From assembly GCA_022709525.1 (NCBI GenBank), contig JAKLIQ010000007.1, forward strand, positions 49,720 through 113,719: a stretch of DNA of 64,000 nt, read 5' to 3'. Every line of letters starts with the position of its first letter. The stretch's first letter is position 1. Shown here piece after piece: positions 15,001 to 39,000 of this stretch. A program made the translations under genes and the position numbers. The notes beneath the pieces were generated by a model. That model was not told the DNA's origin. It saw only the letters and a program-made list of their open reading frames with translations, and ran no database searches. This DNA is from Candidatus Omnitrophota bacterium (lineage in GTDB: Bacteria; Omnitrophota; Omnitrophia; Omnitrophales; Aquincolibacteriaceae).

Positions 15001-18000
15001 TGCGCTCGGGACGCACCCTTACAGTTTGACGCTTTCAACCTATGCCGTGTCGGGGCGCTTGGCCCGAACCGATCGCTTCTATGTTGCCGAAGGGCAACGG
15101 ACGCTTGAATCGCAAACCTTTTACAAGACCGACGGAACTCGTATCGATTTCATCATCAACTGTAATGCCGCCGGAAAATACGAAAGCAAGGATGTCTATA
15201 TTTACCGCTCCGGCGCTTACAGCCATCTGCTTTATCAGACGGAGCGTTACCACCGGAGCGGGGTACTTACCATGGTATCCACCTTTACCTACTCCATAAC
15301 CGGTTCCGCGCTCCGTTTAACGTCCGTTAGCCATCCCTCGCGGAGCACAGAGACTTTTTACTATACCGCCTCGGGCATTCTCGAGCGATCGGTCATGGTC
15401 AACCACAACGGAAAAAAGCTGCAGGAGACCTTCTACGATTCCGTGACCGGCCTCAAGAACAGAGCTGTTTCTTTCGGGATGGACGGTTCGGTTATCGCCG
15501 AAGAAATCTATGAATACGATGCCGACGGGCGATTAATGAAGTCGACAAGGGCCCAGAAAGACGGGACCGGCCGGGTCATGATAACGACTTACGAAGGCCG
15601 GAAAGGTTTTGAGCGGGCGATAAGCCGCAAGACATACGCCGATGGGAGTCTTACGGATCTCGAACAGGAAACCACATCGGTTTATAACGCCGATGGCAGC
15701 CGCACGGACAAAACGATCGATCACACTGCCGATCCCGATAAAGAGAACGAGGTCTATAAGACCGTGACGGTCTATGACGCCCTGGGACAGAAGGTTTCGA
15801 GTGAAAGCTATGATAAGGCCGGCAAAAAAATCGGGGCGACTTCGAATTACACCTATGATGAGTACGGCCGGGAAAAAACCTACAAAACCTGGTCTTCTAA
15901 AGAGGGATGGCAGCTGGTCCGCATTACCCGCTACAACGATTTCGACCTCGTGACCGAACAGTGGACCGGAGACAAAACCAAATCCGTGATGGAGTATTAC
16001 AACAATTTTACCCTGAAGCGTTCGGACTATGTCGTTTACACGCTTGGGGAAGCGGATATGTTTGGCTGGTCAACCTATAACATTATGGGCGATGAGACCG
16101 GCACGGATTCCGGGCTTATTCCCGGAGGACCGACTGACCGTATGGTCAAAGCTGCGGAAGCTGCCGCAGCTGCAGCCCAAAAAGCGGCGGCGATTGCCCA
16201 GCAAATGGCGACCCGGGCGCAGCAGCAGGCCCAGGAAGCTCAGGATGCCGCAAACGAAGCGCAGGATCGCGCGTCAAGAGCTCAGGACCGGGCAGATGCC
16301 GCCGGCGATGCCGCAGAACGGGCTGAAAACGATATGTTGGCCGCAGAAGCCGAGCGTGATCGCGCTGAGGCGAACCGGCTTCGGGAGCAAGCGAAGGCGG
16401 AGTTGGCCACAGCAAAGCGGCTACTTGAGGAAGCCGCAAGTCTTGCGCGGTCAGCTGCTGCAGCCATGAGAGAAGCGGCGAAGATGATGGATGAGGCCTC
16501 AAAGGCGATGAAAGCGGCAGCGCAGGCCATGAAGGAAGCAACCCAGGCGATGGAGAACGCGCGTGACGCTTACGAGGCGCTGAAGGCTCTCGGAACGCTC
16601 GATGAGGATGCGATCCAGGCGACGATCGACAGTTACAGCGACAGCATCTTGTCGATGCGGGACAGTACGGCCTCCCTATTGGACAATGCGGCGAGTTTGA
16701 GTGATAGCGCCGGCAGTTTAAGGTCTTCGGCCTCCAACATGGATGATGCGGCGGACAGTTACTCCGATATGGCCACCCTGGTAGGCCTGGTTTCCGCGGA
16801 GATGTTTGGCGGGGACGCGAGCACCGGGGAAGGGGCTGTGCTTTGCGATTGGCTTTCACATATCTGTTGGGGCGACGGCTGGGCGTATTTCCAGCTTGGC
16901 GATGACAATGAAGACGGAACAGACGATTCGTTCGTGATCTTTGGCAGCCCCCGTAACGTTACCACCGGAGAAGGAACGCAGATCCATAATTGGACCCTTT
17001 CCGGCGATCAGACCGCAGCTTATTGGGATGGTATTAGCACTATGGGTGACGATGGTTTTCACTGGACCGGCCAGTGGCGTGTGACGGCGGACGGCGACAT
17101 TTTGAACGGGCAAGTGCTTTACACCTATCAGAATTCCGTTTACTACGACGGCGATCATCAGGAAATGGTCTATTACTACAATGCCGCCGGAGATCTGATC
17201 AAGGTTACCTGGGATTACGAGTATAGCGATTCCCAGATGATGAGCGATACAGAAGTCGACAACGAGGGAACTTGGTACAACACGGACTGTGCGGATGGTC
17301 TGGCGGCCTTCAACGCAGACTATGCCGCAAATCCGAACGGCGATTGGGAGCAGAACGACGACGGAACCTGGAGCTTAACAACAAAAGATATTTGCGAATC
17401 TGATGTGACTTGGGTCGGCATCATTTTCGTTATCGTTGTGATTATCATCGCGATAGTCATAACAATTGCGAGCTGGGGCACTGGGACCTGGATCGGCGTA
17501 GCAATGGTCGCCGCGGCATGGGTCTGCATTGCTGTCGCCATTGTGTGTGCTGCCATGATGATCTATAGCAAGCTGACCGGCGATGATGCGTTCGGTCTGG
17601 ATGACACCGAATGGGCGGCTTATTCCGTTCAATTTTCATGTTTGGCTATATCTTTGGGAGCTGGCGCAAGCCGTTTATGGTCGAGTACTTTTTACGCCAG
17701 CTTGGTAACCGGATTTATTAATGCTCTATTCACATACGGAATGACCGGCGATATTGGGAAAGCAATCACCGTCTTTGTTTTAAGCGTTGTTTTGAGCCTT
17801 CTCTCAAAATGGGTACCGTCTAATTACTTTATCGTTAATTTGATCGTTTATTTTGTGATCACCACGTTCGTTTATGCGCTCGCGACTTATCTGACAGCCG
17901 ACGAGGGAACCTACGACTCCTTATGGGATGCCGTGGAGGATGTCTGGGTCTATTGCCTTGTGATTGCGTTTTTTATGGCGCTCTCAGCCCGAAGCAGTAG

Positions 18001-21000
18001 TCAAACCGACGGAAATGCCCCTGGTAAAACAGACTCCACCGCCGCAAATACTCGGGTCAATTCCCTAGATATGAAGTTCAATTGGGGACAAGGCGTCATT
18101 AAATTTTTGCAGTCATCTGCTTCAATATTTTTTGACATGATTATGGCGAGCGATAAAACTGACAAGCTTCTTGGCGACAAATGGGGTCTTAAAGAATATG
18201 ACGAGGATACGCGCGAATATGAGGCGACGACAGCCGGAAAAATTGTAATGTCCGCGATGAATTTTATGGCGACGTTGAGTTACGGAAGCCCCTCGCTTAC
18301 TCTTTGGAATTTTGCTTCAGGTTTGGCGGCTGCTCTGGCGGGAACCTATGTTACCGCCAGGGAGCAAGAGAGCCTGGAGAACACGGGAATGAAGGATTAT
18401 ATTGCCCAATCGCTTGCCGGACAAATTGGAGGAGTTGTAAGCGGACTCGTTGGTATGGCTTCCAAATTGTTGCAATACGCTATCGATTCCGATGTAAGGG
18501 CAACGCTCAAGACGAATGGTTTTAGTCTGCTGGAGTTTCTAAGGGGCCGGTGGGATCCGGCGACGGGTAAATTGCAAGAAGTCACGATCGGTAAGAACGG
18601 ACTCCTGATCGTCGACAATCAATTTTTTAATAAAAAAGGAGACGTTATAGCATCGTTCCAGACCATTGGAAACGAAGCTTTTCAGTACGCAGAAAAAGAA
18701 GCTAAGGGAGCGTATGCAGTTGACGCGGCTTTTCGACAAGGGATTGCGCAACGGGGGGAGAGCGCTTTGACAATAGCGGCACTCCAAGCGGGCGCGACGT
18801 TCACTTTGTCCAAAGATGGCAAGTTGGAGAAAACAAGTTTCGTAAGCCGGGTTCTTTCGTCGCTTTTTGGCGATGTGGCTGCGGGTACGGTTACGGCAAA
18901 GTTCGGAGACTTATCGGTAACCCTCGAGCTTACCGAACAGGGGTTGCTTTCCTATGATGCTGATCGCAATGGGCAATTGGACGTCGGTTCAGCGGCATAT
19001 ACAGCTTTGGCAAGGATTTTCACGAATAATGACACAAAAACTTATGAAGGTTGCGAGAATCTAGTTCAGGATCTTCAAAAATCCCTTGGAAAAGGAGACT
19101 TGAAAGGCGTTGTGAGTGTTAAGTTTGGCGTTGCTGATTTTCGAGCGAATGGGCAGGCCTATGGCGATGTGACATTTTTAGTTTCACGGCAGAGCGTTGC
19201 GATCACCTATCAGCTTGCAGGCGCCACATGGACGGCGATAGGCGCGAATTTCCAAGGCGCTGTTCATGCGATGTTTGTTTTGGATCAGGCGTTAGTTGAG
19301 GCGGGCATTGGCCGGGTTTCGGATTTCTTCAAAAATATGAATTTTGAAATGAAAGACGGAAAGCCCAACGAGACTTTGAGTAAATTTATGAAGTTTGGCG
19401 ATTATCTGTCCAAGAACCTCGGCCGAGGAGAAAGTATAACCGCCACTTTCAATGTCAAATACAATGGAAAAGACTACAGTTTGTCTGCGACCTGGCGGCG
19501 GGGCAGCACGACCTTTGAGTTTAACGCGCGCGCGATTGATGGCAGCCGTGTATTGGTTTCTTTTACGTTTGCGACGACGACGGATGCCATGAAAGCATTC
19601 ATGGCGATTGCGGATTTTGCTGCGACTTTCGACTCCCTTGTTTTTAGTAAGGACAATCTTGGAAAGATCATTGCATTTAGGGATGGTGTTTTTGGTGCGC
19701 TTACAAAAGCGGGGCTTTCGACGGATCGACTTGACCTGACATTTACAAAAGCGGACGGGACCTCGGCCGGAACATTTACGGTATTTGCTGATCCGGGCAG
19801 GTCCGTTCTTTTTAAAGGCGCGACGATTGGCAAAGCGGGCGGGGCGCATTTGGTCCTGATGGGGGAGGCCGTGAGTTTTTCGGATGCTGTGACCGGTCTC
19901 TCGGAACTCGATACAGTCTTAAGCGGTTTCGATGGCTCTTCATCGGGGATGCAAGCGGCTATAAGAACGTTGCTTGCAAGCGACAGTTTCAAGCTTTTTT
20001 CGGGACTCGCTTTGAATTTCATGCAAGGGAATGCGTCGCTTGGTGCGGTTATGTTTGAAAGCGTGGATGGCGTGATGACCGGGCGGTTCATGAATGTCCA
20101 AGTGAATGGCGAGAAAGGTTCGGTCCGGTTGGGAGGGCGTTTTGCCGCCGATCAAGGGGGAGTCGATCAGGCGTTCAATCGTATTAACGGGATGCAGGAA
20201 AAATTGAAGAACTCGGATTTGTCTGGGGACAATGCGGAACAGCTTGCATTTGATGCTGCCTGCGAACTTCTCGGAACGGAAGGGATAGCGTCTGAAGCGG
20301 AACGGAACGCGATGGGAGAGTTCGGGGTTACCCTGTTCGAAAAACAAACTGGGTCGTCCGTCACTTTTCTCCTGACGAACCTCGGAGACGGCATGCTTGG
20401 GCTTCGGGTCCAATTGGATCTGGGAGGCGGTTTTCAGATAACTTCGGGGACCCAATACAAATTCTCTGCGAATGACCCAAGCGCGCGGCAAATAGCATTT
20501 AAGACGGGTTCAGATTGGGCAGCCGGTCTTCAGAAATATGATGTAGGAGACCGGTCGCGAGGTTCAAAGACCGGATTACGGGCGCTTCTGAAAGACGCCG
20601 CCATCTCGTGGAAGGATGAGTTGGCAGCGGCTCCCGTTCAAGGGGTCGAGCGGGTCGCCGGAATTTTAGAAATAACTTTTTCGGGAGAAAATAATACGGC
20701 TTTCAGCCGGCTTGAGTTTAGCGTCCAAAACGGCGTTATTTCCATGCAATATTTCGGACGTATTCTTGGTAACGGGTACGAAGATCTTACCTATTCAACC
20801 ACGCCGATCGAGTTTGGAGAGGGGCATGCGGATATATCCGGCGTCGATTTTGGCGTTGACCTCTATGAGGGAAATTTGCAGTTTAACGAACGGTTTGCTG
20901 GGGACATGAAAGCCCTTGGTTTGCTTAAGGACATCATCAACATGCCCGATAAACCGCGTCTGGATTCTCCGAAAGATCAGATCGGTTTCATCAGCAAAAT

Positions 21001-24000
21001 AAATCTAATGCTCGACAGTCAAGGGGTTTTGCAAGAGACCCTGGGCCAGGAGATCCTCGCCTTTGTTACCGTCGCTTTCTTCGCCGGCACTCCCCTCGAC
21101 CCGATGGGCGTTGGCGCGGATCAGAAGCAGCACATGACCTGGTCTGTTTATGATGAATTGGGAAATGTTGTCGGGCATGCCGGCAGCGTCCAAGGCAATA
21201 CTCTCAGCGTCAACCTGAAAACTCAAACAGCAACGGTTAACGGAGAAGCTTTCAGCATCAAACAAGATGAGCTTGGCAGGGTAACGCTTCAATTTTCCAT
21301 AACGGATAAAGGGAGAGAAACAACGGTCAAGGGTGTCCGTCAAGAATATAGCGTTCTTGACCTGAGCGCTTTCGATTTATCGACGCAGGGAGCCATCCTT
21401 ACCCAGTTAACGAGCATGGGCCTCATCCACAATCAGTTTGAGCTAATAGTAGGTGGGGAACTTGTTGTTGCCGGTTTTGGCGCCGAAGGAGATGTTCTTG
21501 CTTTTTATACAGCACAAATGAAGAAAGATGGTCAAGTTTGGGTAAAGAGCAAGGGAGATATTGTCACCCTGACGCCGGCAGAGGCAACGACTCTTTTAAA
21601 AGAATCAAATAGAAATCTTTATAACTTTTTGAAATTAGAATCTGGTCAGAACGTTTTCTTGAAACCGGCAAGTACGCTCGAGGGAGCTTACATGCAGGAA
21701 GAACAACAGGCGATATGGCGGGATTTGGGAACAGTGGGGATTACGCAGACGACCACAATTCTTGTGGGGACAACATTACAAACTGCCCAACCGGTTTTGT
21801 ATCAATCGCCTGGCATGGGGCAGAACGCATGGATTGTTATAGGGGGCAATGGAAATCAATATGCTTATGATCGAACAGGTCAGGGCTTTGAGGTTTATTC
21901 GGATAAGCCGGTTGAAAGTGGCGTCAAAAATGTAAGCGGCTTAAGTTCGGGAGCGCAGGAAGCCGTAGCAGGCATTCCTGCCAACTATAAAAACGCAACA
22001 ACGCAGGGTCAGATTGATCAATACGCACAGGTTACCCACACGATTACGGATTCGCAAGGCAACGTTTTGAACGGGACGGTCCTTGGCAAAGAACTTGCGA
22101 GCGTTTTTGGTCTTTATGACACCACGGTGCTTATGGCCGGTGGCCAGGCGGTTTGGCAATTCGGCGGGACTAAATTCGATGCCCTGGTCAACAAAACCAT
22201 TGTGCTTCGCGGGCTCGGAGTTAACGAAGGCCAGTACGGGGTCGTGAACGGCGGCTTTTATAAGCCCACCGCTAATCTCCTGAACGGTAAAGCCCAAACA
22301 TTAGCGGGTGTTGACGCCTATCAAAAGAGTCATCCCGAGGCTGCTCAATACAAAATCCTCAATAGCCATACCTTCACGGACGCCAAAGGGAAGCTGGTCG
22401 AAGACGGAACAGTGCTTGATCAGACGCTTTCTAACGCTATGGCTCAAATCACTGGCGCTCGGGAGCAAATTATCCTCATGAATGCGGCCGGCCAGGACAT
22501 CGGCTGGTTCTTTGGATCCGATATTACAGTATTAAATCAAGCCGGCGCTGTTGTCTTCGGCATGGATATGCAGTTTAACGCGAATACAAACAAAGTGGAG
22601 CCAGTAGGGAAACAAGGCTCCGCCCAAGTCAATGAAAACGGCACTTGGAAAAACGTTACGATCTTTGGGACCCGGGACCGCATAGCCGGCACCGCCGCCT
22701 TAAATGGCGGCATCGCTGTCACAGTCCATGGCACGGATTATACGGTCCAAGGCGAGGTAAGCACTGAGCAGTCCCTGGCGATCGAAATGGCCTTAAATAA
22801 CGCTAATGTGATCAGCTACGAGTGGCGGAGCGCCACGGCCTCAGGCGTTGCTTTCTGGGCCAATGGGTCCCTTAACGCTTATATCGCAGATAACCAGCTT
22901 TGGGTGATCGCGCAAGACCGCAACGCCGCAGGCCAGGCCGTTTACTTCCAGCCCGCCACCGCCACGATCGCCGGAACTCTTAAAACCTACAACCGTGATG
23001 AAATGAGTTCAGAACAAGTTGCCGAACTCGATGCTGTGATCGCCAAAGACCCTGCTTTTATGAGCCATGTTTCACTGACCTTAAGCGGTAAGGGGACTAC
23101 GGTCACGGGCTCTGAATTCTATGAATTTACAGTTAATGGCGAACTCCTTGATCCTTCAAGCGTTACGGCCAATATGCTCGGTTCGATGGGTTATCTCACC
23201 TATAACAACGAGACAGTATCAGCAGGCGCAGGAAAGATCTTCTTAAGTGATGGCGCGGCGCTTTCCGCCTCCTTTGCCGCCAATGGAAGCTTTATCTGGG
23301 CTCAGGAGGGGAATACGACCGTCATTAACGGTCTTTATGTTCAAAGCGGCAAAATGAGTCTTGGGGCGAACCATGCGCTTGTCGCAAGCGGCAGCGAGAT
23401 TCGGGTGGTCGGGTCCGATGGAGTAGTGTCTTATAAAAAATCCGTATCTGTGAGCGTGAACGGAATTGCCGGAAGGACAGGCAATGACCTTGCAATTGAT
23501 GGAGAGATCGCTTTCTCGGATGGAACAACGAATTATCTCCTTGGCTTTAACGGCACCCAGCTTGTGGCGGGCCTGCGCGGCACCGACACGCTCTCTTTTA
23601 ACATGCTTAATGCAGCAACCCTTATGACCGGGAATATCACCAATATCGCCTTTATCCAGACCCAATATTACACTTACTCCCTTGACCGGATGCAAAAAGG
23701 TCTTTTTGAGACCGATCTAAGCGGCAAACGCACCCAGGGATGGAATCATGAAACGGGGACGATGCTTGTTTCCACGACCAATAAGACGCAAATCGCAGAG
23801 TGGGCCAATAAAGCGCAGGTAACCGGTGCTTCCGTAAATCTTGAGGGCGGCGGCACGATGCCCGTTGATATTAACGTAAGCTATGCAACCGAGCTTTGGG
23901 TGGGGGCAGGCGGTCTGGCCTTCTTCTTTGCCGGCAGCGATGAAATCGGCGTTTTCCAAGGAGCGCTTACGGCCGGAAGCATGGGGAACCTCAGCTCCGT

Positions 24001-27000
24001 TCTTTTCTATGCCGCTCCCGACGGTACTTATAGTCTGCAGCGTCAGGGGAGTGCGCTTTATGCCTACGACAGCAACCAAAACCTGCTCGGCGCATTCGAT
24101 GTCAGAGATTCGAAAAATGTTGTGTCGTTTAAATGGGACACCGTCGGAAATAACGTAATTGATTTCGATTCCAAAACTGAAGGCGCACAAAAAACACTCA
24201 CGCTTCAAAGTGATACAGAAATAACTTTACGCGAAGCCTCTCATGTTCTTGTAAGCGCCGGAACCGATCCCGCACAAACCATGCGGATTTTCTTGGATGC
24301 CGAATACCAGATCCTCGGCCAGACTTTGGGCGATATCCGAAGCGACCTCTCGATCCTCTTTTTCAAAGGTACAAATGGTGAAATGATCCAGCGCACCGGC
24401 GCAATGCAATTAAGCGCATTTGATGCGTCAGGTCAGTTGCTAGGCCAAAAGGATGTGACACAAGCAGCTTTCGAGCAAGGGCGCCTGATGGGAGAAAAAT
24501 CAACAACCCTCCACCGCTTGGGAACTTCCGAAAAAGCTCAGGCGACCATACGCGCTTATGCAAACACCGCACGTACGGAATTAGCTTATTTATCGGGGCC
24601 GGATTCGACCTTAGCCCCCGGCGATGCGGCAAAGCTGCAATATGGGCTTTACATCGACAATATCCTCATCGCAATCGGTGAATTCAAGAGTTGGGCAAAA
24701 GACGGATCGGTCCTTGCGACCTCGATCCATTTCACAGGGCTTGACGGTACTGAATTCGACGGGCAGGAATTTCTGGTTCTCTCAGGAAAATCCGCCGATT
24801 TTGTTAACGAAGGATTTGAACTTTCGCAGACAAGGCAGATGAATACGGTGAGATCGGATCCCGGCAAGGCGCAAGAAGCGGCTTTTCCTAAGGGCACCAA
24901 TGTCAGCTATGACGGCGGAATTTATGCGGCGGTTGTCCGCGGAGAAAGAAGGATCGAAAATATCAGCGCCCTGACAAGCGACGTGACGCTCCAGGGCTTG
25001 ATTTCGGATTATTACGGATCGGCGCAATTTACCCTCTTTGATCCGGTCACAGGCAACGGAGTGCTTGGCGGAACCATTTTGGATGCGGACCCTGGAGAGG
25101 GTCAGGATTTCAGGCTGGTCGCGCCTAAAGGTTTTGATATCTTTGCCTCGCAACCGGCAGGCGCTGAGGCCGAAGGCTATGCGCATGTTCTTCTGAAGGG
25201 GGCTGCGCTTACCGCTACAGCGATTGGCGCCAATCTTGTGGAGGCAGGATTTAATGAAACGGATGCCGAACGCCTGACCGACCTTTTAGTCGGCCGCGGC
25301 GAGATTCGTGCCGGCGGGATCTCAGGTATCCAAATAACGGACCCTGCGGTAGTAAACGAGGCTTTTAAAAATATTCTCTTTGATTACGTTCAAAATTCCT
25401 CGGTTTTTAAGCAAATGTTCGCTCCCCAGGTGATCTATGCCGGCAATGAACTCTATGGGATCATTTCCATTTCAAGCCCAGCGGACCGGATAGGAACCAA
25501 CGGGAGAGAGGTGATCGGCGTAGTGCATTTGAATAAAGATAATCCTGAGGTCTTATTGTGGGGCGGGTTTGCCACCTCGGGGGAGCTCGGTAAAAATGCC
25601 GTCATCACCATGAGCGCTCACGTCTTTGACCAAGAGGCCTTAAAGGCCGGAAGCTTTATCATCTTGGCCGCCCCCTTCTTTGCAGAGCTTGCGAAAGCCG
25701 AATTTGTTTCCATGAACTGGCTGAATAGTTTCCAGGACCGGATCGTGTCGAACGTGAAAGACGTATCCTTAGTCCAGATCCAATGGGCCGGCGGCTTTTT
25801 GCGCGCGGAGACAACAGTTTCCAATCTCCGTGATTCGATCTCTACGGGAGCGGGCAACACCTTTATGGTTCGCGACTTCCAAAACTCAAAGATCTTGGAT
25901 TCGAAGGGTACGGTGGAATTCAGTTATTCTGCGAATGCGCAAAATTTTATCATTCAATTCACACAAAGTATCGCTGCCCAGAATCTGGTCTTTTTCTCGG
26001 AGGCCGGCCAGCATCTCCTTAATTCGATGATCCTTGCGCTCGGGGCTGGTAATGTCGATCTTAGCACGCAAGCGGGTTTTGATGCCGCAGCGCGCGCCTG
26101 GAGAGATGTTTCTTTTAGGCAGGAAAAAGTGGAACCTTCAGCGTTGGAGCGCAGCTATCCCGGCTCTGCCGCTGATCGGTATGCCTTGGATGCGGAGCCG
26201 TCTCCTTTTGAAAGCGCATTTATGGCAGAGACCGTTTCGACGCTTGCGGGAACTCAATATCAGGAATTTGAGCAGGCGCTTGCGATGGCAGGCGGTATCA
26301 CCTGGACATCTTCGACCGGCCTTGACTCGATTTTGGCCGGTTTCCATAGCGCCTTAGGGGATGCGACGGTTTCAACAACCTTTACCTTAACGCCCCAAAA
26401 GCAAAATTATTATGCTAGCCCCCTGGCACAGCCCACTCCTGAAGGTTATAACCTGAGCGTAAGGGTCAATAATATCAGCAATCTAGGGACGGCTACCTAC
26501 AATCAAGTCGCTGCTTTCTCCAGAGCGCTTGGGGTCAATGTCACGGCAGATCACCTGGATGATCTTTTCGGGAATAATCCGTCGAACCTAAGTCTGGCGA
26601 AGAGTTTTTCAATCTCGTTTAATCCCATGCAAACATCAATAAGTATTTCTGCTACAGGGCAGTTATGGGCTGCCTTTGACCTGAGCGCGCAGGCATCGCT
26701 TGTCCGGTTGACGGGTTTTGCGGCGGATTTCCTTGCCGGGGTTGAGTACACGGCAACGGTTTTCAGTTCAGGAGAAAATCAGCTTTCTATTTCAGGCAAG
26801 ATCAATGGTGCGGCGTGGGATGAGTGGAGAAGCACCCATTCAAATGTGGCGGAGCTCCAGGGAGGTATTGTTTACGGGTTGGCGCCTGAGAGTGCTCTGG
26901 AACAGGATCGTTGGGCTAATGGATTGAGGACAAAGGATGGAAGAATCGCTTTAAGTTATGAGTTTGGAGCGGAGTTTAGCGATCCGCTGATCGGGGAAGC

Positions 27001-30000
27001 AAGCTTCGAGCTGACGCATAGCGTTTATTACGGTGAAAACGGTGTGCCGCTTCAAGTTGATTTAAGGGCGGCAACGGGAGGTCTTTTCAGTGACGCGAGC
27101 TATACAAGTTATGCCATTTCCCGGAACGCCCAGACTGGGTTTTTCCAGGTTTCCATTTCAGGAGGCGATCTGGGTGCCAATGACAGCTTTAATGAGAATT
27201 ATCACCTCTATACCCGCGAAGAGACCAATCATGGTTTTACGACATTTTTGACCAATAACGCCTGGATTGCCGGCGATTTCCATTGCGATCTCGAAAATGG
27301 CTCAAGTTGGGCAGAGTACCATGATTATGCCGCAGAGACATTCCAAGCGGGAGTGATCAGTTTTCAACAATCAATTGAAAAAGCCACGGTATCGATCCAG
27401 CTTTGGACTTCAACTCAATGGAATGAAGGCCATTACGGGAAGCTTGTTCTCGCAGTAGGTGCGATCGCGGTAGGATTTGCGGCCGGAGGGTGGGCCATCG
27501 CCGCAGTCACGGGAACGGGTGCCATTGCTGTAGGCATGACGGCAGTAGTGATTAAAAATATCGCCTGGGGCGTGATCTTCTTTTCTGCTTTTGCCGCAGT
27601 TTCCGTTGCGGGTGGTATTGTCTATGCCGAAAAGCAGAAAAAATTAGTAACAGATCAAGATAACCCGATGGATCCATGGCAGGCCGCCATACAAATATCC
27701 AATGACAGTTGGTGGCTCCACAGGGCTCAGAATTATACCCTTACGACCGCCCTTTTCTTTTTTGCGACCGCGATCGGAACGCCCCTCATGAATCTCGGGC
27801 TGCAGAATGTGGTTGTGCATAGCTGGACTTCGGCGGTCGCAAACTTCTTTAACCGATTTACCTCAAGCGCCTTCGGAAAAGTCATTACCGCACCCTTCCG
27901 ATGGCTTTTTGGGAATGTTTCCGTGGAAGTAATCGCTCAAAAAGAAACTATCGCGGCTTTAAGCCGCTTTGCCGGGGTCAAGGCCTTAGAGGTCGGAGCC
28001 CGCGTATCTTTGACGGGGGCCAATGCGTTTGCCGTCCATCTCATGAGATTTGTTTCCATTAAGGCCCTCTTCGGAAGCGCGATCCATTTGGGCCTCACGC
28101 TTCCATTCCAGATGAATATTGCCGCGAATTTGATTTCAGATATTTTCTATCAGGGGCAGGTCCGTTCCGTTCAGGAACTTGAAGCCACGATGTTAAGCGG
28201 TGGTTGGTCAAGCGGCCGCGGAGGCCTTTTGGGCGTTTGGGATGGTATTAAAAAATCGGTTGCAATGATGTTCTCGCAATCGACGACCGGCTCAGGGCTT
28301 TCCCAAGCGGTCCAGCAATGGTCAACCCCGGAGTTTTGGGTATTTGTGGCTGCCTTTCATTTCCTTTCCTTTATTCCGACGTACTCCGCCGCCGCGGTTG
28401 GAAGATTGGGTGAGTTTATGCTCATCGGCCCCGCGAAAAAGATCTTAGGCGGTTTCGTCCATGCCTTGGGGAGCGTCTTTGGATCTTCGGTAAGCATCGG
28501 GTTGGCGAATTTGCAAGCGGGGGTGGTCAGCTTTATCTGGGGCAGTGGCAGTGTTCTCTGGCAGAGCATCAAGAGTCTTTTTGCGGGTGTTTATGAGGAA
28601 GTTCTAAAAGAGCCGGTTCTGCAAGTTCTTTTACTGTCATGGTTGCCTAGCAGCGCTCAGGAGTATGTGGTGGAACTTTTGGATGCGGCAGATGGCGATA
28701 TGTCGCATTTTATCAGCGCGAGGATGGGAGCGCTCAGCCAAAACCTCCAAGCCTTGGGAGCGGCTGCGCCGCAGGCGATCAAGGGTCTTTCTGTCGGGGC
28801 GCAAAACGATGTTGCAGCAAGACTTAATACGGCCATGATCGCGTTTAAGGCGGGAGATTATACCACCGCCCAAACCAAACTTGCCGAAGCGCTTAATTTA
28901 ATTGGAAGCCAAAAAACCGGGAACCAGCAATTTGACGGCGCGGTCCGTAATCTCCAGGCCATGCAGGCGACCCAGCAAGGGGTTTTAAATCGCTTTAATG
29001 CCGCGCTCCAGGATCCCAATAGTGCTTTGGTTAAGCAATACAGTACGTCGGTCTTATCTGAGATGTATTCGCTTGTTTTCGCCAATCCCTTCATGGACCT
29101 TGGCGCTGTCTCCTCGACGGGGATCGGGGATTTCTCCGGTCTTGCCGCTGTAGCGGCTATTTCTCTTAAACTGTCCGATCCAAAGGTCACCATTAATATC
29201 AAAGGAATGGACGCTAAACTTAATGCCGTGATCGCCAAGCTCCAGAAAGCTGTCGAAGGGATCAGCGATCCCCAGGCAAGGCAGGCGCGCATAAACGCGC
29301 TTGTAGCTAATCTTGCCATAAACGCCTCAGCCCTTACTTATACCGACGCCCAGGGCCAATCGCATGTCAATGAACAGGTTTTAGCGAACGCGGTGCTCGT
29401 TTCACTTGCCGGCGCCGTTACCGCTGAAGCTCTTACTTCTTTTGGTATCAGTCAAAGGGTTATCGATGCTTATGGCTCATTGGAAGGCGAAGTCCAGGCT
29501 GAGTTCCGCCAGGCGCTTTCGGAACGCATCGCTTCCGCAGATGAAAATGCGATCGTTTTTCTCATGATCGGCGCTCAATTGAAGACCGGCTTGAAATCCA
29601 TCGCTAAGGCCGAATCTCTTGCCGGAAAACTCGGTGTTTCCTGGCTGGCCCGTGGCGTCCTCGCTCAAATCGCGACAACAGAAGCCCAGGCAAAAGCATT
29701 GGGCGAGATCCTGATTCAGAATGCCGGCAGTTTTGAATTCTCCAACTTGCTGCAATTCCAGGGCATCTTGACTGCTTCAGTCCTTCTGCAGACAGCGACC
29801 ACAAAAGAACAATTGGTTGCCGCTTTCAACGTTCTTGGAATTACGCTTACAGGCGATCTCTTGGATGCTTTTGAATCGCTTATGACTAGCCGTCCTGATT
29901 TCTTAAAAGACGTTGCCGGCTCTTTAGTGGAATTTGTCCGAAAAGACGGGAAGGTAAGCGCTAGGGATATCCGAAGCACAGTCCTTCTTTCGGTTTTCCG

Positions 30001-33000
30001 GCATGGCGATAAACTTTCAAAAGCAGAAGTCATGAAAGTGACCCAAGCCTTTGGTCAAGAAATCGCCGGCCTCAGCACTTTAGTGCAGGAGCTTGATAAG
30101 CTCGATGAGAGCGTTCTTCCTGTGGTTTTGAAAGCGATCGCTTTGAATGCTTCTGATATGAATTTAACGATCGAAGGCGTCGTTGCCTACAGTCTCAAAG
30201 TAATGGGTGGAATGGCGGTGGCAGATGTCCGAACAAGCGGTGAAACCTTAAAAACCCTTGGAGTTTTTAGCGATGATACGGTTAAGGGCGTCACGGCTGA
30301 TGAATTAGTTGATGATTATGATTCATCTCGCGGCGATCTTGCAGCTGCCTCAAAGGATTATTTAAGAAAGAAAATGCCAGCCGCTCAACAGGTAACGGGA
30401 TCCCAAGCGGTTCCTCAAACCGTTCAGGAAGCAGAGCTTACCCGCGCACAAAACGAGCTTGCGGCGGTCAACGATATTTCAAAGCTCGATGCCGGCACCG
30501 CGATCGGTCTTGCCCAGCGCCTCGCTTTTGCCGAAATGCTTGTTTTTGAGGAGCGTTCCAAAGGGCTTAATCAAGAAGGCTCAACCGCGACGAAGCAGGA
30601 AAAGACCGAGACTTTAAAAACTTATCAGGACGCCCAAGACCAATACGGGAAACTAAAATCTCCGAAATTTTCAAAGGCGGTCTTGGAAGCTCAAGCAAAA
30701 GCCATGGTCAACTGGCTTGTGATCCACGGAGGTCGCACCTCAGCTGTGATCCAGCAGCGGGCGCAATATATGGCCGCCCATCCCGAGACCGGGCCTCCGC
30801 AGATCATTTGGGAGGATCTGCTTAATGAACTGGTCAGCGTTCTTCCTGAGGCTAGTCGCGCCCCCGCCCTTGAACTTTTACGCGGCGATGTGGATGGCGC
30901 TTTAGGGACAATGGAACTTGAAGCAGGGCATAATATTCGCATTTTAGAAGAGAGGGTCAAGCGATCATCCCAGCAAGCTCCCAACGCCAAGGATATGCGG
31001 GCACTTTCTGAGGCGCGTTTCACGGAACGTGCCGCACGCATGGCGCGTATGGAAATCGCCCGTGTTTTTGCTCGTAACACCGCAAGCGCCGAAGAGATCA
31101 CCTTACGTATTAGGGCTGCGGAAAGTAAGCTCGCGGAACTTCAAAAGCAATCCGAAGATCCCACGCTGGCAGCTTCGGTCCAAAATGATCTTATTTTGCA
31201 GCAAGAACAGCTTATCTCCCAGATCACTTTCTTTAAGAGGATCCAGGAGAACATCCGTCTTAATCAGAAAGGAGGGGTTAAGGGGCTTTCTTTCGGTCTT
31301 GAGACAAAAACCTACGCCTTTTTAAATGAACGTGTGACCGATCATGAAGCTGGCGCAAATCCGATCCTGCTTAAATATACGACAAAGCCCAAAACAGACG
31401 GTACCGCGCTTCGCGTGATTCGTGCTGAGACAAGCGAATCGGAGTACCGAAAGGTCGCTAAATACGCCGAAATGTCGCCCGAGCAGCTTGCCGCCGTTAT
31501 CGAGCTTGCCAAGCTTTATAATCAGACGATCGAAATGTGGGAAGCTTTTGTGGGTTGGGATATTGCCTCCCGCAATCAGGTGGAGCAGGGCGTTGCGATC
31601 GCAAATCTTATTTTTAGCCCCAATCTTTTCCACGAGATCCCGACGGGTACCGGGAAAACCTCGACTATTTTTGCTTCGCTCATGATTTTCCATAAGGCGT
31701 TCAAGCAAAGAGCCGAGCAACTTAAATCCGAAAAGGCGGGGACGCAAACCCTTGCGGAGATGCAAAAACTTTACAAAAATTCCGATGGGAGGCTCATTTT
31801 CATTCTTCCCGATCTCAATCTTTTCGAGCAGACCGAAGGGGACATCAAGCCCTTTGCGCAAGGCGGTCTTAAATTTGCGTATTTTACCGAAAAAACGCTT
31901 GATGCGCTTCGCACAGATGAGGCAAAAGGTGTTATTGATGAATTCCAATCGGCCGATGTCGTGATTGTCTTAAACCAAGCCGCAGCGTTCCTGCAGCTTA
32001 ATAAGCAAGCTTCTGAGGCGGACTATAAACGTAAGGTTGGCGCTCCCAAGATTGCGATCGAACGTTTTTATGATATGTTTATGACCAATAACCGCGTTCT
32101 TGCCGACGAAGCCGACACTTGGTTTACGCAGCCTCCGAGCCAAATGGGCGAGGGGGAACGCTTACTTGGAAAGCCCGGATTTGAGTATGAGATCGAGCAT
32201 TCGGCCTTAATTGACCAGGCGATCATGGGCGTTGTGGGCGAAGGAGTTTCGGGCCTTGATGCGCTTGAAGCGCAGCGGCGCATGCTTACGGTTTCTGTCG
32301 TACTTGAGAAGGGCGGCGCGCCCGAGCTTATGTCGTGGGAAGAGTGGCAGAAAAAAGGCGCCCCCGGCCAACTCCTTGATGCGCGTATCGATGGCGTAAG
32401 ATCCAAAGAAGGGGAAGCTGCGATCGCTGCAATTTCCAAAGCTCTCGTTGGGATGCTTGCCAAATACGGTATTACCGCAGATGAAGGAACAGTGAAATCC
32501 TGGCTTCTCCAATCCCCTCAGGAATTCGAACAGCTTCCGGATGCCCGCATTAAAGAAATTATGCGTGAGGCCCGCGCCTCCCTGGTCGGTCGCGCCAAAG
32601 CGATCCGCCAACGCGAGGGCGGCGATGTTGCCAAATACATGCGCCTTGTCCCGATCAAGAAAAATGAAGCGCTTATGAAAGTCTTTACCGGTCGCGAGGA
32701 TCTGGAAGGTGCGGCACTCCAACTGATGCTTCATTTTAACGGTCGTCCCGAAGCACTTCGCGACATCGCAAACGGGAAGGGTAAGTCATATCGCGACGGT
32801 GAGATTCTCTACAATAAAGAGCTTCGCGAGGCCTACGACCTCCTAGTTAAAAACGACATGCTTCGGTATCTTGATAAGTTCGCACCGCGGTGGACGATTG
32901 CAGTTGTTTCCAATAAAACCATTAATCCAAGACTCCAAATGAGCGATCCTTATCTGAATGCTCACACCCAGCTTGTTTTCCTGCGCGCTTATGGCGAGTT

Positions 33001-36000
33001 GGGCGCCGCGCTTGGCACAATCGATGGCGCATCAAAAATGGGCGAACAAAAAGCAGATATCAAGACCTCCGAGGGCCTTGATCGGTTTTTGCGTCATGTG
33101 ACGGTCTCGGGCAATGCCACTCACTCAACTCAAGAAGAAATGATCCGGGCCCTTAAGATGCGCGGTTCGACTCTGGGTGGTTTTTCAGGGACCCTTGGTC
33201 ACGTCCGGTCAGGCCTTGAAAAGATGTATGGTGCCCGGATGCTTCGTTATGTCGAAAATAACCCTTACTTTGGCGCACTTTCAGGCGATGAAGCAGCGCT
33301 CATATCTTTATCGGAGGTAGAAAAAGTCCATGCGAAGGTCTTGCTTCGGGCCGTTCAGGTCGCTTCCGAACTCGATGGCGCATCAAAGAAAACCCAAGAA
33401 GAATATTTAGCGGATCTTGAAGGCCTTCTTAAAACACTTCAAGCGTCTCCGGAGCTTCGTCATTCATTAAGCGTGGTTCGCCTTGCCCATGAGCGATTGC
33501 GCGAGCTTGGCAAACTCGATACGCTTCAAGGTCTTAAATTCGAACGCGGGAACCGTATGATTGAGGATGCCCGCATCGAACTTACGGGGAATGATCAAGC
33601 TGCCTTCGAGAGCTTTAGGGCCAAAATGTTGCGGAACCAGGCCGCCAACGCTGTTTTCTGTAACGGCCGCGCTAATATTGGCGCCGATGACGCGGCGGTC
33701 GTGAACGCCTTTCTTGCCATGTATCAGGAGCTTGCATTGAGCGATCCCAGTAAGGTTTTCAATGGCAAAGATTTCTTTACCTTGGTTTATGCCGATCGTT
33801 TGGCAGGCGTTTGGCGCGTTCGTAGACTCAATCGTCAGGGCCAGAAAGTGGATCAAGAAGGTAAAGTGCTTACCGACCAGCAGGCGGAGGATCTTAAGAT
33901 TGACGTGAGCGAGGTGAAGAGTTACCTGACGCGCGCAGCTGAGAATGAACATGTCGCGCTTTACTTTAATGAAGCAACGCTTCGCGGTATCGATACGGTT
34001 TTTACAGCCAATCTCCAGACCTTTGTCTTAGCCGATGAAGGCTCGATCGGAAACGTGATGGAACAGCTCTTTGGACGTCATCGCGGCGTTCGTGAACTCG
34101 TCGAAATTAACGGGAAGATGGTCATCAAGGATATCTACGCGACAAGCGAGGAAGCTGCTCGCGATTTTGCAGCAGGTAAAATCACGCGGGAAGATATGTT
34201 AAGGGAGGTTGCTAAAGGTGAAGGTGGGAAGTTCACGACCCAAGAACAGCGTACAAAAAACGGAAAACAGGTCAATAACTACAAGATCTATCAGGCTCTC
34301 GAGATTGCCTTTGTCGATCCTTCCTCGAGTGTTCTGAGCTCACAATTACAAGCCGCGGAGGAATCCTTAAGAGAGGCCTGGGCTTCAGGCGATGAAGAGG
34401 CTTTTGAATCTGCCCAAAAAGAACTTGCACGCATCCAATCCGCCAAAGAGATAAGCGTTTTCGAGCTGGAGACGATTCTGGCCGAAAACCGCCTTCTTTC
34501 CAGCCAGCGCAGTAACTATGACGGGGTTCGTAATGCAATGGAAGGCACGATCCGTACACATCTCATTTATCTGATTGCTACGGCAAAATCCGCTGAGGCA
34601 AAAGAAGCCCTGCATCAAGAACTCGTTCGGTTTGAACAAAAGCTTGCCAAGGATATCCAGACCCAGACCTTGCGCGGCGAACTTGCCACAGAAAGCCTTT
34701 TAGGGATCGTGAAAAACGCGCTTGCGCGCTACCGTTCGATCGAAGCCAATACAGAGTTAGTAAAACTGCTCGCCAAAGAACAGCCTGCGATCTTAGCTGA
34801 GATCCGAGAGCAGACTAGGGCCTTAGAAGAGAATATGAACGATTTCTTAAAAGACGATAAGCATTTATCCCTTTTTGCAAGGCAGGAGCAAAGGTCCGCA
34901 ACCGGGGAAGTTACAATCCGCTGGATCCATGTGCTTACCGATCGCGCGACCGGTAATGTCATTTCAAGTGAAGATGCAGGGGTGGTTCCTCTTGGCGCTA
35001 CAGCCCAAAGGGATGGTTTGACGGGAGATTATAGCTTTATCGCAGAAGACGGGAAAAAACTTTCTATTTCCGCGGAGCGGGTGGGGGTTGTGATGGCCCG
35101 GAACCCGGCCGAGGCATTAGTCCTCATCAATCAATGGTATCGCAATGACGATTTCGCCCGGTTTGCGCCCTACGGCGGCCGTCCCGATGTCGCGGCAACG
35201 GCTTATCAGAGCAAAGAAGACGCGGCAGCCATGCTTGCTACCAAGATGGATACCGAACCGGTCGCTGAAAACAAGGAGCTTAGCCCCGACCAGAAGCGCG
35301 TCCAAATCCACGATCCTTCCGGATTAGTCGATGCGTTATTTAACTGGGCGAAAGAGCGCGGTCTTATCCAGGGAGAATATCTTACCTCCGGCGGTTCAGA
35401 GGTTCTTTCGGGCTTTAAGAGTTTCCGTGACGCGTTACTTCGTGATCCCGCTCGCGCTATTGGGATCCTGGAAGGACTTGAGGTCCGCGGGATTATCCCC
35501 GAATCATTAAAAGCAGAACTAGCAGCGATTAAAGAATCCACAACCGGGACGCTGGATCGCGAAAAACAAGAACGTCTTGATCTTGCGATTCTCAGGCTTT
35601 TCCAGGGTCTTGTGGATGCCGGGCTTCCGATTACCCAAGATGCGCTTTCAGATGTTTTTGGTATCTTAAAAGAGATCTCAACATGGCTTGAGGGTGTTTC
35701 GGATGCAAAGATCACGATGCGGGACATCGGTCGCGCGATTGCAGAGGGCCGTGAGGAGTGGCGAGCCGTGTTCCTGAAGACCCTCTTTGCCCGGGCCGAT
35801 GCCACTAATGCCCGTATCATTCAGCTGAAAGCGCTTTATGGGTCTCTTGTCACGCAATACGATGCGATGCAGAAGGTGCGAGCCAAGCAGATGCGCGATG
35901 AGGTGCGCTTCACGGAGCTTTCAGCCAGGATCCTTGGCGCTCTCTCAACGAGTAAGTGGAAACGGTTGACACAGAAGCTTTGGGCGTTTCGAATCTATCG

Positions 36001-39000
36001 TACGGCGACACCGATGGATCCTTCCGCAAAACTTATAAAACGACTTTTTCAGAAATTCCCATGGCGTGTCTCTTTGCGCTCGGCTCTTGGTCGCGCAAGT
36101 CACGAACGCCAAAAACTCTTTAAGGATTCCTTCAAGGATATCGCGAAGATCATGGCTTCCAAGGAGTGGCATGATAAGACTACGGTGCAAACGCTTGTCG
36201 ATGCGCTGTCCGAGCTGCCGGAGGGTCAGCAGGCGACAGGAGCTGATCTTGCCGAACTTTATTGGGGTACCGCCGCGGGGGCTTCTTCGCGGATGACACA
36301 CGCAGCCTTTATCGCAAAGTGGGCTCCGATTTTTGAAGGCTTGCTTGCCTTAGATAGGGCCGGCAAAGTCGCCCTTTCTCAAATAACGCTTCGGGATATT
36401 GCTAAGAAAGGTCTTCTCGATAAGTTTGAAAAAATGCGCCGACTTCCCGTGTTTGATGATTGTTCAAGTGAGAACGCTGCCGCCTGCACTTCGGATCTTT
36501 TAGCGATCACGCTTGAAGCAAACAATATCGTCGCCGGATCGTGGAAGCAGGGGTGGCGTCGGATCCAAGCCTGGTTTGAAGCCCGGTATCCGGCTCAGTA
36601 CGCCGTCTTAAGCGCACTTTCTGCGATCCCTGATTCTTTAGTCTCGCTTTGGCTGAAGGTTCGCATGGCTGTGGCCGCGCGATTTGATATCGGCAAACTT
36701 TCCGCAGGAGTTGCGTATTTGAAGCCAGTTATTCGCGAGGGTGAGCCGCCGAACCAGGATCTCGCCTATCGGCTGTGGCGCGATCTACGCTCAAATAATA
36801 AGGACCAGCAGAAGAGCGCGTGGGAGACGATCCTTGCAATGCAGGGGAAGGAATGGTCGCGCTTTGGCAGGAAAACACGCAAGTCAGCTGAAAAGGCAGC
36901 GCGTGAGGCGCTTTCCACCCCTGTCAAAGGCGAAGGTAATTGGATCGCGTTAAGCGGGCGAAGCAAGGTCGGAAATGTCGGAGTCACCCATGTACGTCAT
37001 CTTTACGTAATTGCCAAGACCTATCAACTGCCCAATGTCGGACGGCTTGTCGTGATCCCTGAAACGGAGACAACGGGCAGAATTGCTTATGCCGAACATC
37101 CGGAGTTAGCGCCGATCGGCAGTGTTGTTTCCATGGAAACCGGGAAGGTCACGATCGAGGGAACGGCTTACACCGCGCAGGCTCGCGATGAACGTGTTGA
37201 GACCTCAGTCTACAGGGTTTCTCAGCTTCTGGGCAGCGCTCAGGAGCCGAGTGAGATTTATGTTTACCGTGACAAAAATGAGAAAGAAAAACGCGACAAC
37301 CGTTATGTTTACAATGAAAAGCGTCAAACAAAAAAGACTAACGCGCTCTTAGAGCAATGTCGCAAAGGGAAGACCGTTCGGGTACGCGAGAATTACCACT
37401 CAAAGGATCTTCGCCGGAAATATCAGGAGCTTTTAAGTCGTCTAGACCGGCGCCTGCCAAAGGAGATCCGGGATGCACAGAAAAAATTTATCGAGAGCTT
37501 GCCGTCCGGTGAGCGAACGAAATACGCCGCCTTCTTAGCGGTGAATGCCAAACGCAGAGCGCTTTTGGAGCAACGGGGAGGCTCCCAGAAATTTACACCC
37601 GCCATGATCGAGGAGATCCAAAAAGACCATCCCGGTGTTAGCGAAAAAGATGTTTATGCATTCCTCGGCATTTCGGAAACGGTCTACCGAGCGCTCAAGC
37701 AGGCGCAGGACCAGATCTCCGAGCAGCGGGGTCAGATTGAAGCGGACACAAAGCTTAACGCGAAAGAGAAGACCCATCTTCTGGCAACATTAGAGGGATT
37801 GGATGAAATGTCCCGCGGCGTCGAGTTAAACCCAGATACCGAAGCCTATAACTCGAAAGGGACGTTCTACTTAAGCATTCAGATGCTTCAAGAGTTGAAT
37901 CTCTTTCTCCAGGAGTTTTCACCGGAAGAACAGCCCGGCGCCATGCGCGCCTATCTCCAGCTTTACATGATTCACGAGAAGATTGAAAAAGATCTCTCAG
38001 ATTTCCAGAAGATCCTTAAATGGCTTGAGCAGGATCTTAAGCAACAACTCGAACAAAGCCTTGAAGAGCAGGATATAGAGAGACTTGCTTCCTTAATGGC
38101 CCGTCGAGCTTTCTTGAGGCGCGTACAGCAAAAACTCGGATTCCAGGGTAAAGACGATATTGGCCAGGCGTTTCGCGATTTTGCGGCAGAAATGACCTCG
38201 ACTTATTTCTTGATGAAATTGATGCCGGATCAAGGCGCGCTTGCCGTCAAGGCTCTTCGTGTGATGGGACAACTGAAAGGCAATAGTCTTATGGGCGATA
38301 AGGCGGATTTCTACACTTGGCGCGGCCTTGCGGCTAAGGATGCTTGGAGAAGCGCCCAAGAAGGGAATCTCTTTTCTTTCGAGATCTTGCAGAATTATTT
38401 CCGGCAGAGTTTTTCGGCTCATTATTACCAGGTCCTCGAAGCGATCAGTCGGGGAGAATTTGGGATCGCGAATTCGATCCTTGATAAAAAGTGGAATGAA
38501 TCAAGGACTGTGGACGGCGAACCTGCGATAGATTATCGCACGTATGTGGAGCTTAAAAAATTGATCCATAAAGCTCGCGGGGAAGAGATCCAGGTCAGTC
38601 GCGCCACGAATGGCCCCAATAAGGGCGAGATCGAGATTAAGATCACAGGCGCGACCCCAGCTCTCCCGGATGAGGCTATGAAGGAAGCTTTTGAAATGCG
38701 CTCTCGGCTTGATCGGGATCTTAAAGATTTTATGGATCTTTTTTCGCAGCGAAGTGAGCTGACGAAAGTCCATAAAGCCGCTGAAGCGGATATCCAGAAA
38801 AAAACTGAAGAAAAAGCCAAAGAGCTTAAAACGAAGTTCATAGGATCCGGCCCCGAAGCCTGGCAGGAGCAACGGAAAAAAATGGAAGAGCGGAGCCAGG
38901 GCGCTCGGGATGCATTTGATACGTATAAAGATATGGCTCACAATCCCGAGCTTCGCGAGAAGTTTGCCGCTGAAGCAAATACATTTAAAACAAATGTGAA

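Follow-up and report, generated by a model that had tools for sequence, protein, structure and literature searches.

According to West-Roberts et al. 2023 (bioRxiv, 10.1101/2023.11.21.568195), divergent SecA DEAD and preprotein-binding domains are present in most giant proteins of Omnitrophota; these SecA-like domains are located after C-terminal transmembrane anchors, come without a scaffold or wing, and may serve to export the very protein that carries them. A PF07517 architecture cluster is given in a further report (bioRxiv 10.64898/2026.06.07.730766). The wider problem is how bacteria with very small cells synthesize proteins of 10,000 to 85,000 residues, export them and anchor them. To our knowledge, a SecA-like ATPase is the one machine-like element that has been reported to recur in such giant proteins. 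Here we describe a module of this kind that lies far from the known SecA models in sequence, and document its motifs and their conservation, its predicted SF2 fold, the position of its insertion and the architecture of the C-terminal cassette to which it belongs.

The window, i.e. the whole stretch of 64,000 nucleotides that was analyzed, contains a giant ORF (Table 1). Nucleotides 2-34 are stop-free and in frame and extend the N-terminal repeat, which leaves the ORF open at the window's 5' end, so that the real protein exceeds 13,578 aa. The product is 100% identical to HOW87841.1, a partial protein from a Candidatus Omnitrophota MAG. The second of two transmembrane-like clusters is the last membrane anchor ahead of the cytoplasm-like C-terminal region. 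Past this cluster, the composition changes from surface-like to cytoplasm-like: lysine plus arginine rises from 7% to 12.4%, and serine, threonine, asparagine and glycine together fall from 31% to 21%. The motor module lies about 1,260 aa C-terminal to the last cluster, and in full-length relatives it is found downstream of the transmembrane clusters in every case. Both the module and the C-terminal tail are probably located on the cytoplasmic side.

Table 1. Features of the giant ORF and its ATPase module. Positions are those of the window; residue numbering starts at the first ATG in the window, not at the true start.
Feature	Position (nt)	Strand	Sequence	Residues (aa)	Basis and remarks
Giant ORF	35..40771	+		13,578 in total	From the window's first ATG
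First transmembrane-like cluster	17387..17989	+		5785-5985	Hydrophobic segments; Kyte-Doolittle scan
Second transmembrane-like cluster	27443..27628	+		9137-9198	About 3 helices; Kyte-Doolittle scan
SF2 ATPase module	31412..34414	+		~10460-11460	RecA-like domain 1, inserted domain, RecA-like domain 2
Q-motif / motif 0-like	31577..31606	+	QVEQGVAIAN	Gln 10518	22 residues before the P-loop
Motif I / Walker A	31631..31663	+	HEIPTGTGKTS		Alignment and model
Motif Ia	31793..31834	+	LIFILPDLNLFEQT		Conserved hhLx[ND]xxLxxQ; strand E137-141 in model
Motif Ib region	31952..31993	+	ADVVIVLNQAAAFL		Conserved AD-hhh...FL block; strand E192-196 and helix in model
Motif II / Walker B (DEAD box)	32096..32119	+	VLADEADT		After strand E237-241 in model
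Inserted alpha/beta and helical domain	32132..32929	+		~10700-10965	About 265 aa, between motifs II and III
Family signature	32930..32989	+	PRLQ(Q/M)SDPYLxAHTQLVFLRxY		Alignment
Motif III	33170..33193	+	TLGGFSGT		Consensus G[FM][ST]GT; after strand E596-601 in model
Helical insertion in RecA domain 2	33314..33532	+		~11094-11166	Helices 644-716 in model
Motif IV-like strand	33644..33667	+	ANAVFCNG		Conserved hydrophobic strand, then G; E755-760 in model
Motif V	33950..33994	+	HVALYFNEATLRGID		Consensus FNxxATRGxD; strand E856-861 and loop in model
Motif VI	34055..34093	+	VMEQLFGRHRGVR		Consensus QLxxRxRGxR, arginine fingers; helix 889-898 in model
Cassette remainder	34415..40768	+		~11461-13578	blastp against relatives and alignments

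The earlier note had recognized three motifs in the order of a helicase, with the DEAD box about 150 aa after Walker A, and had read them as an SF2 helicase or DEAD-motor ATPase core. All three lie in the reading frame of the giant ORF, namely PTGTGKTS (aa 10536-10543, nt 31640-31663), DEAD (aa 10691-10694, nt 32105-32116) and QLFGRHRG (aa 11344-11351, nt 34064-34087), and 155 aa separate motif I from motif II. Furthermore, DE[AVIH][DH] occurs once in the whole giant protein, at this very site. Motifs Ia, Ib, III, IV and V, which the note had proposed to look for, were all located and are conserved in the family; in SF2 proteins, the ATP and substrate sites are connected by motifs Ia, Ib and III. 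Motifs IV, V and VI, with the arginine fingers, lie in a second RecA-like domain, and the full motif set together with the RecA-like fold of the model described below supports the proposed core. The glutamine of the Q-motif is kept in 13 of 15 aligned members and replaced by histidine in two. Conservation within the family is highest in the signature sequence, which forms a strand and a helix leading from the insertion back into RecA domain 1. According to the alignment, the helical insertion in RecA domain 2 occurs only in the window protein and its closest relatives, P0003 and P0004.

Family members were found by an exhaustive HMMER search, and family loci by a scan of genome contigs with the AHTQ block as query; word-index protein searches, with a single sequence as well as with a profile, retrieved only one or two relatives. 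About 20 relatives, with identities of 22-49%, retain the full SF2 motif set. Conservation of the GKT, DEAD and arginine-finger residues, on which the earlier proposal was to be judged, holds for GxGK (invariant in the family alignment), for the arginine fingers and for D-E-x-D, which is unchanged in 19 of 20 relatives inspected at the site (the 20th, a metagenome locus, was not resolved). It does not extend throughout to the residue after GxGK: this is threonine or serine in most members, but asparagine in one clade (GGGKN; P0005, P0007, P0008, L007 and L015) and glycine in P0009 (GTGKG), and these replacements may weaken Mg-ATP binding in the members concerned. Across the loci, no stand-alone motor gene was found, every locus lying within a giant ORF; nor were conserved neighbor or partner genes found nearby, the downstream genes being unrelated housekeeping genes.

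A RecA-like fold around the motifs, whose absence was to count against the proposal, is predicted by AlphaFold (pLDDT 76.5 for the module). Each motif falls on the expected strand, loop or helix; Walker A, for example, follows the succession strand, P-loop, helix. In the Foldseek search, the top three matches of the module are B. subtilis SecA (E 1e-5), and TM-score and rmsd, too, are best for the SecA matches (highest and lowest of all matches, respectively). Comparators were E. coli and B. subtilis SecA with PDB entries 1tf5, 3bxz, 2fsf and 5k94 for SecA, and 8s35_M, 6fws and 3tbk for SF2 helicases of the XPD/DinG and RIG-I types. The domain inserted between motifs II and III takes the position of the PPXD in SecA; since the Arch domain of XPD/DinG helicases is likewise inserted there, SecA is not alone in having an insertion at this point. 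Folded in isolation, the inserted domain reaches a pLDDT of 83, and its best match among 48,164 PDB chains is 5k94_B, a SecA preprotein cross-linking domain chimera; the same chains yielded no Arch-like or Hel2i-like match. XPD/DinG Fe-S helicases also possess a four-cysteine Fe-S cluster domain between motifs Ia and II. The module contains no cysteine in this interval and one in its entire length, and an Fe-S helicase of this type was rejected. Two long helices follow RecA domain 2 in the model, which ends before the rest of the cassette.

What is more challenging is the placement of the module among known families by sequence. Curated SF2 models of Pfam stay below their cutoffs (ResIII 20.3 bits against 22.5, DEAD 16.6 bits against 26), both weak matches beginning at motif I, and Helicase_C does not match in the module; hence, it is by its motifs and predicted fold that the module is placed in SF2. 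Searches with phmmer against PDB sequences, and comparisons with PHROGs, NCBIfam and PADLOC, gave nothing significant for the module. The full-module profile matched only BLM among PDB sequences, the Q-motif stretch being aligned with BLM motif 0 and motif I at a non-significant E of 0.4, and a profile of the motif III block matched only an irrelevant myosin. For 13 members (the window module and 12 relatives), there is no match to SecA_DEAD (PF07517), SecA_PP_bind (PF01043) or SecA_SW (PF07516) at E up to 1, and the helical scaffold/wing model (PF07516) has no match in aa 9901-13578. With hhalign, the family compared to E. coli SecA is not significant for either the whole protein or the PPXD region; the pieces that do align correspond to Walker A and motif III, the best local one being the SecA motif III sequence GMTGTA (SecA residues 385-421), likewise not significant. 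The family HMM ranked the real E. coli SecA 7th against 3000 of its own shuffles, which is suggestive only, as any SF2 protein might equal that rank. A word-index search with E. coli SecA returned, among the matches listed, only enterobacterial SecA at 89% identity or above. Thus no sequence method tried yielded a SecA-specific link.

The module opens a C-terminal cassette of about 3,100 aa, whose remainder has no Pfam or PDB-sequence match. Its conserved blocks comprise aa 11474-11990, 12317-12853 and 12974-13240, beyond which lies a C-terminal domain; two HExxH motifs are located at aa 13093 and aa 13339, and the C-terminus itself is conserved, ending in AA or SA. According to blastp, homology among the giant proteins is limited to this cassette, and the N-terminal surface-type regions are wholly different within this small group of Omnitrophota giant proteins. 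In every case, the motor co-occurs with the same downstream blocks and the C-terminal HExxH domain. Because the cassette is shared by giant proteins with unrelated N-termini, we suggest that it, rather than the motor alone, is the functional unit to test.

With middling confidence, we regard aa ~10460-11460 as an SF2 (DExD-type) ATPase of two RecA-like domains, with motifs Q, I, Ia, Ib, II, III, IV, V and VI and an insertion of about 265 aa, which acts as a membrane-tethered SecA-like motor on polypeptide. Judged by its motifs, the module would be catalytically competent and hydrolyze ATP; its substrate is presumably protein, not nucleic acid, and its most likely role is protein export or remodelling at the membrane. 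ATP binding and hydrolysis in the cleft between the RecA domains would move the inserted, clamp-like domain, and these movements would serve the export, insertion or remodelling of the giant protein's long extracellular segments, which amount to about 8,900 aa and have no signal peptide. The motor is made last and therefore cannot act on its own N-terminus during translation; it would work in trans or post-translationally, probably on newly made copies.

Other interpretations have to be weighed against this model. The module could be a membrane-tethered nucleic-acid helicase or translocase of the DinG/XPD, RIG-I or RecQ type, without any tie to protein export, which might handle DNA or RNA from prey uptake or in defence. 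An insertion between motifs II and III would suit DinG/XPD, yet in comparison with the XPD/DinG and RIG-I helicases the module has neither nucleic-acid-binding accessory domains nor a defence or repair gene context, and we consider such a role unlikely. Doubtful, too, is an ATP-dependent conformational switch or scaffold that is not a processive motor and is catalytically degenerate in some lineages; its nucleotide state would regulate assembly, processing or activity of the cassette, e.g. of the putative HExxH peptidase domains. The asparagine or glycine at the Walker A Thr/Ser position, while the rest of the module is kept, speaks for a switch, as do the constant company of the downstream blocks with the HExxH domain and the lack of conserved partner genes. 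However, the window protein and most relatives retain GK[T/S], DExD, motif III and both arginines of motif VI, as would be expected of an ATP-hydrolyzing enzyme, and conservation extends to motifs Ia, Ib, IV and V, through which SF2 enzymes link hydrolysis with the substrate.

That the motifs are chance or relic features in a non-functional stretch of an over-predicted ORF is extremely improbable. The one point in its favor is that Pfam, NCBIfam and PDB sequences give no significant match. In 2000 protein shuffles, G.GK[ST] followed by DExD/H at a distance of 80-250 aa appeared in 0.75%, but the triple including a motif-VI-like pattern in none; moreover, every motif is kept across relatives despite the low overall identity, the fold is predicted with confidence, and a stop-free ORF of 40.7 kb is impossible by chance. 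Together, shuffles, conservation and predicted fold rule this explanation out. A more far-reaching proposal concerns the cassette as a whole, which would be a self-contained, cis-encoded export-and-processing machine and a new, SecA-independent secretion route of giant Omnitrophota surface proteins. Such a machine would combine the SF2 motor and its clamp-like insertion with several conserved blocks of unknown fold, two HExxH metallopeptidase-like domains and the conserved AA/SA C-terminus, and varied N-terminal payloads, from 5,000 to more than 10,000 aa long, would have become fused to it; we rate this as quite improbable.

For the SecA-like motor that we favor, the motif map and the domain boundaries can now be used for mutagenesis and expression, with K10541, D10691/E10692 and R11348/R11350 as candidate residues. 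Surveys based on PF07517 will undercount such motors, because their divergence can put them beyond detection by Pfam.

In its overall plan, the window protein agrees with the proteins of West-Roberts et al.: it is a giant protein from Omnitrophota whose long N-terminal region lacks transmembrane segments and is followed by transmembrane anchors and then by a DEAD-type motor, probably cytoplasmic, that bears an inserted domain. The N-terminal region contains F5/8 type C (discoidin) domains, as in their 'Dockerin-type' class, and in both cases a SecA scaffold/wing is not detectable. The domains described previously are recognized by the Pfam SecA models, whereas the module analyzed here and its relatives never match them; with regard to a common lineage or a separate SF2 family, the two are set side by side by description and Pfam only. 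SecA-like motors in Omnitrophota giant proteins have been known since 2023; the present module is a highly divergent further example, and the picture published then is left unchanged.

The three strings that the earlier note had read as helicase- or SecA-like (PTGTGKTS, DEAD and QLFGRHRG) are all present in the frame of the giant ORF, the single enormous ORF in the window, which encodes 13,578 aa from its first ATG. The DEAD is the sole DE[AVIH][DH] tetrapeptide of the whole protein. When the giant protein is shuffled (n = 2000), a P-loop followed by DExD/H at helicase spacing recurs in 0.75% of cases, and the triple of P-loop, DExD/H and motif-VI-like string in none. A chance or artefactual origin of the motifs is excluded.

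Motifs Ia, Ib, III, IV-like and V can also be located, and they are conserved in an alignment of relatives that share only 22-49% overall identity with the window protein; the GK, the D-E-x-D and the Arg of motif VI are likewise kept in diverged relatives. Retention of catalytic residues in otherwise diverged sequence is the signature of a functional enzyme, and the lack of conservation in orthologs that the earlier note named as a refutation is not what the alignment shows. The Walker A residue after GxGK is Asn in one clade (relatives P0005, P0007 and P0008 and loci L007 and L015; GGGKN or GVGKN) and Gly in relative P0009 (GTGKG), aligned to window aa 10540-10542. These variants retain DExD and motif VI; Mg-ATP coordination may be altered or lost in their lineages.

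Features of the giant protein and its surroundings (aa counted from the first ATG; nt, window positions; h, hydrophobic)
Feature	aa	nt	Sequence, pattern or remark
Giant ORF	1-13578	35-40771 (+)	
Repetitive N-terminal third	1-4500	35-13500	several internal-repeat families, about 105-250 aa, 22-64% identity
DUF4214/phycobilisome-linker-like repeats	~600-2330		
F5/8 type C (discoidin) domains	~3750-4215		n = 3
Segment	1-5784		K+R about 7%; S+T+N+G about 31%
Hydrophobic (transmembrane) cluster 1	5785-5985		
Segment	5986-9136		K+R about 7%; S+T+N+G about 31%
Hydrophobic (transmembrane) cluster 2	9137-9198		
Segment	9199-13578		K+R 12.4%; S+T+N+G 21%
Conserved C-terminal cassette	~10435-13578	~31340-40768	
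Module (motor)	~10460-11460		first cassette block
Motif Q/0	10518 (Gln)		GVxQxxAI; Gln in 13/15 members, His in 2/15; 22 residues upstream of P-loop
Motif I	10536	31640	PTGTGKTS; h-IPTGxGK[T/S], GxGK invariant in family
Motif Ia			LIFILPDLNLFEQT; hhLx[ND]xxLxxQ
Motif Ib			ADVVIVLNQAAAFL; AD-hhh...FL
Motif II	10691 (DEAD)	32105	VLADEADT; D-E-x-D invariant in 19/20 relatives checked, the remaining one a locus not resolved
Inserted domain	~10700-10965		~265 aa, between motifs II and III
Signature			PRLQQSDPYLxAHTQLVFxRxY; most conserved block of family
Motif III			TLGGFSGT; G[FM][ST]GT
Motif IV-like			ANAVFCNG; hydrophobic strand then G
Motif V			FNxxATRGxD; conserved
Motif VI	11344	34064	QLFGRHRG; QLxxRxRGxR, Gln and both Arg conserved
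Cassette block	11474-11990		
Cassette block	12317-12853		invariant HE..E and RD..AE
Cassette block	12974-13240		followed by C-terminal domain
First HExxH	13093	39311-39325	
Second HExxH	13339	40049-40063	MVHELIHAAGG..EVEAY
Terminal amphipathic helix		40700-40768	then AA or SA
AbiEii-like gene and sugar-modification cluster		40927-50106	
AT skew -0.33		50001-52000	
AT skew -0.24		58001-60000	

An AlphaFold2 model covering aa 10451-11470, for which 13 family sequences were used (mean pLDDT 76.5, pTM 0.57), has the P-loop between a strand and a helix and the DEAD at a strand end; motif III follows a strand, motif V occupies a loop that also comes behind a strand, and motif VI is on a helix, each as in SF2 structures. 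Foldseek ranks B. subtilis SecA at the top (1tf5, 1tf2, 3jv2; E about 1e-5), and the SecA entries have the highest TM-scores and lowest rmsd among the matches; RIG-I/MDA5, DinG, XPD and DdmD rank below, and next UvsW, Hef, DEAD-box proteins, RecQ and Snf2 enzymes. Given the motif positions and this ranking, the assignment to SF2 is solid, and the preference for SecA over other SF2 proteins is real but small. The earlier note's reading of the fold and of the motifs is supported.

The inserted domain of the module, which folded alone gives a confident model (pLDDT 83, pTM 0.76), occupies exactly the position of the preprotein cross-linking domain (PPXD) of SecA, and the motif III and VI patterns resemble those of SecA, as read in the E. 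coli sequence. In XPD/DinG helicases, too, a domain is inserted at this point (the Arch domain, between motif II and motif III), but the Fe-S cysteines of that family are missing from the module, which has one Cys in 1,000 residues. Neither the window protein nor 12 relatives match SecA_DEAD, SecA_PP_bind or SecA_SW in Pfam, the only matches of module and relatives being DEAD and ResIII, both sub-threshold; profile searches against PDB sequences yield nothing significant, nor does hhalign against E. coli SecA. We conclude that the module resembles a SecA-type motor in its architecture; on the tests run, it cannot be filed in the SecA family.

Searched exhaustively with HMMER, 1.84 billion representative proteins yield only 16 relatives of the region aa 10451-11600. 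Those with a name are mostly proteins of Omnitrophota MAGs, up to 7,525 aa long, including the partial but 100% identical HOW87841.1 from a Candidatus Omnitrophota MAG; a few short fragments are labelled Paceibacterota or Pacearchaeota, and several have no taxon label. A further eight and six loci, in overlapping sets, come from scanning 185,579 species genomes and 241 million metagenome records, respectively. All loci found fall within very long ORFs, and in none of them does the motor have a gene of its own. The family is rare and specific to giant proteins.

Homology to other giant proteins continues in blocks from the start of the cassette to the C-terminus, and nothing in the relatives corresponds to the upstream 10,400 aa; the full-length ones also have the module downstream of transmembrane clusters. 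Confinement of homology to the C-terminal ~3,100 aa argues that the motor opens a conserved cassette that is joined to unrelated, variable N-terminal payloads. The only two HExxH motifs of the giant protein fall in its last 500 aa. The second, with a downstream Glu, recurs close to the C-terminal end in most relatives (P0003, P0008, P0010 and loci L002, L007, L012-L015); it resembles the signature of a zincin-type metallopeptidase and could be related to self-processing, and the region has no match in Pfam or PDB sequences. The terminal helix is shared with P0003, P0007, P0008, P0010, L002, L007 and L012-L015, the endings being QAA, SSA, IAA, SAA, RAA and TSA.

The 5' edge of the window truncates the giant gene. 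The 33 in-frame bases before the first ATG contain no stop codon, and nt 2-34 encode VDGWSFVETRQ, a match to the last part of the ~118-aa unit that is repeated at the N-terminus (compare WSFSEIVE-MTQAAFEE at aa ~111); the true start is therefore further upstream, which makes the protein longer than 13,578 aa. No internal repeats were seen in its C-terminal half. By composition, aa 1-5784 and aa 5986-9136 resemble surface protein and aa 9199-13578 looks cytoplasmic, in agreement with the motor, since an ATPase must face the cytoplasm; the membrane topology is one that we infer.

The flanking genes are ordinary for a bacterial chromosome; among them are a sugar-nucleotide modification cluster, a BatA/MoxR operon, DnaK and an NtrC-type two-component pair. 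Immediately 3' of the giant gene, an AbiEii-like nucleotidyltransferase accompanies the co-directional sugar cluster (GDP-mannose 4,6-dehydratase, two B12-binding radical SAM enzymes, methyltransferases, DegT-type aminotransferase, GT2 glycosyltransferase, C-methyltransferase), whose product could be a modified deoxysugar, possibly one used to glycosylate the surface protein. Downstream genes differ in the relatives; the linkage is therefore not conserved. Strongly negative AT skew covers minus-strand genes for a TPR/VWA protein and DnaK. The window as a whole yielded no tRNA and no Rfam family.

With about even confidence, we regard the module as a membrane-tethered, SecA-like, polypeptide-directed motor, which would help to export, insert or remodel the extracellular chain of roughly 8,900 aa that has no signal peptide. 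The Thr-to-Asn clade in Walker A suggests another role, a nucleotide-dependent switch regulating the cassette, which we consider unlikely. A polypeptide-directed motor would probably act in trans or post-translationally, because it is synthesised last; the export or remodelling function is plausible, and we infer it.

Giant proteins of this kind have been described. Transmembrane regions occur in the products of all full-length giant genes of Omnitrophota, and a 'Dockerin-type' class combines discoidin repeats and an N-terminal region without transmembrane segments with SecA-related domains after transmembrane anchors near the C-terminus, proposed as exporters either of the giant protein that carries them or of accessory proteins (West-Roberts et al., bioRxiv 2023, 10.1101/2023.11.21.568195). 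A PF07517 architecture cluster is also present among long Omnitrophota proteins (2026 preprint). The window protein fits the description of West-Roberts et al., except that the Pfam SecA models miss its motor. The phenomenon was thus already known, and the protein is a new, unusually divergent example of it.
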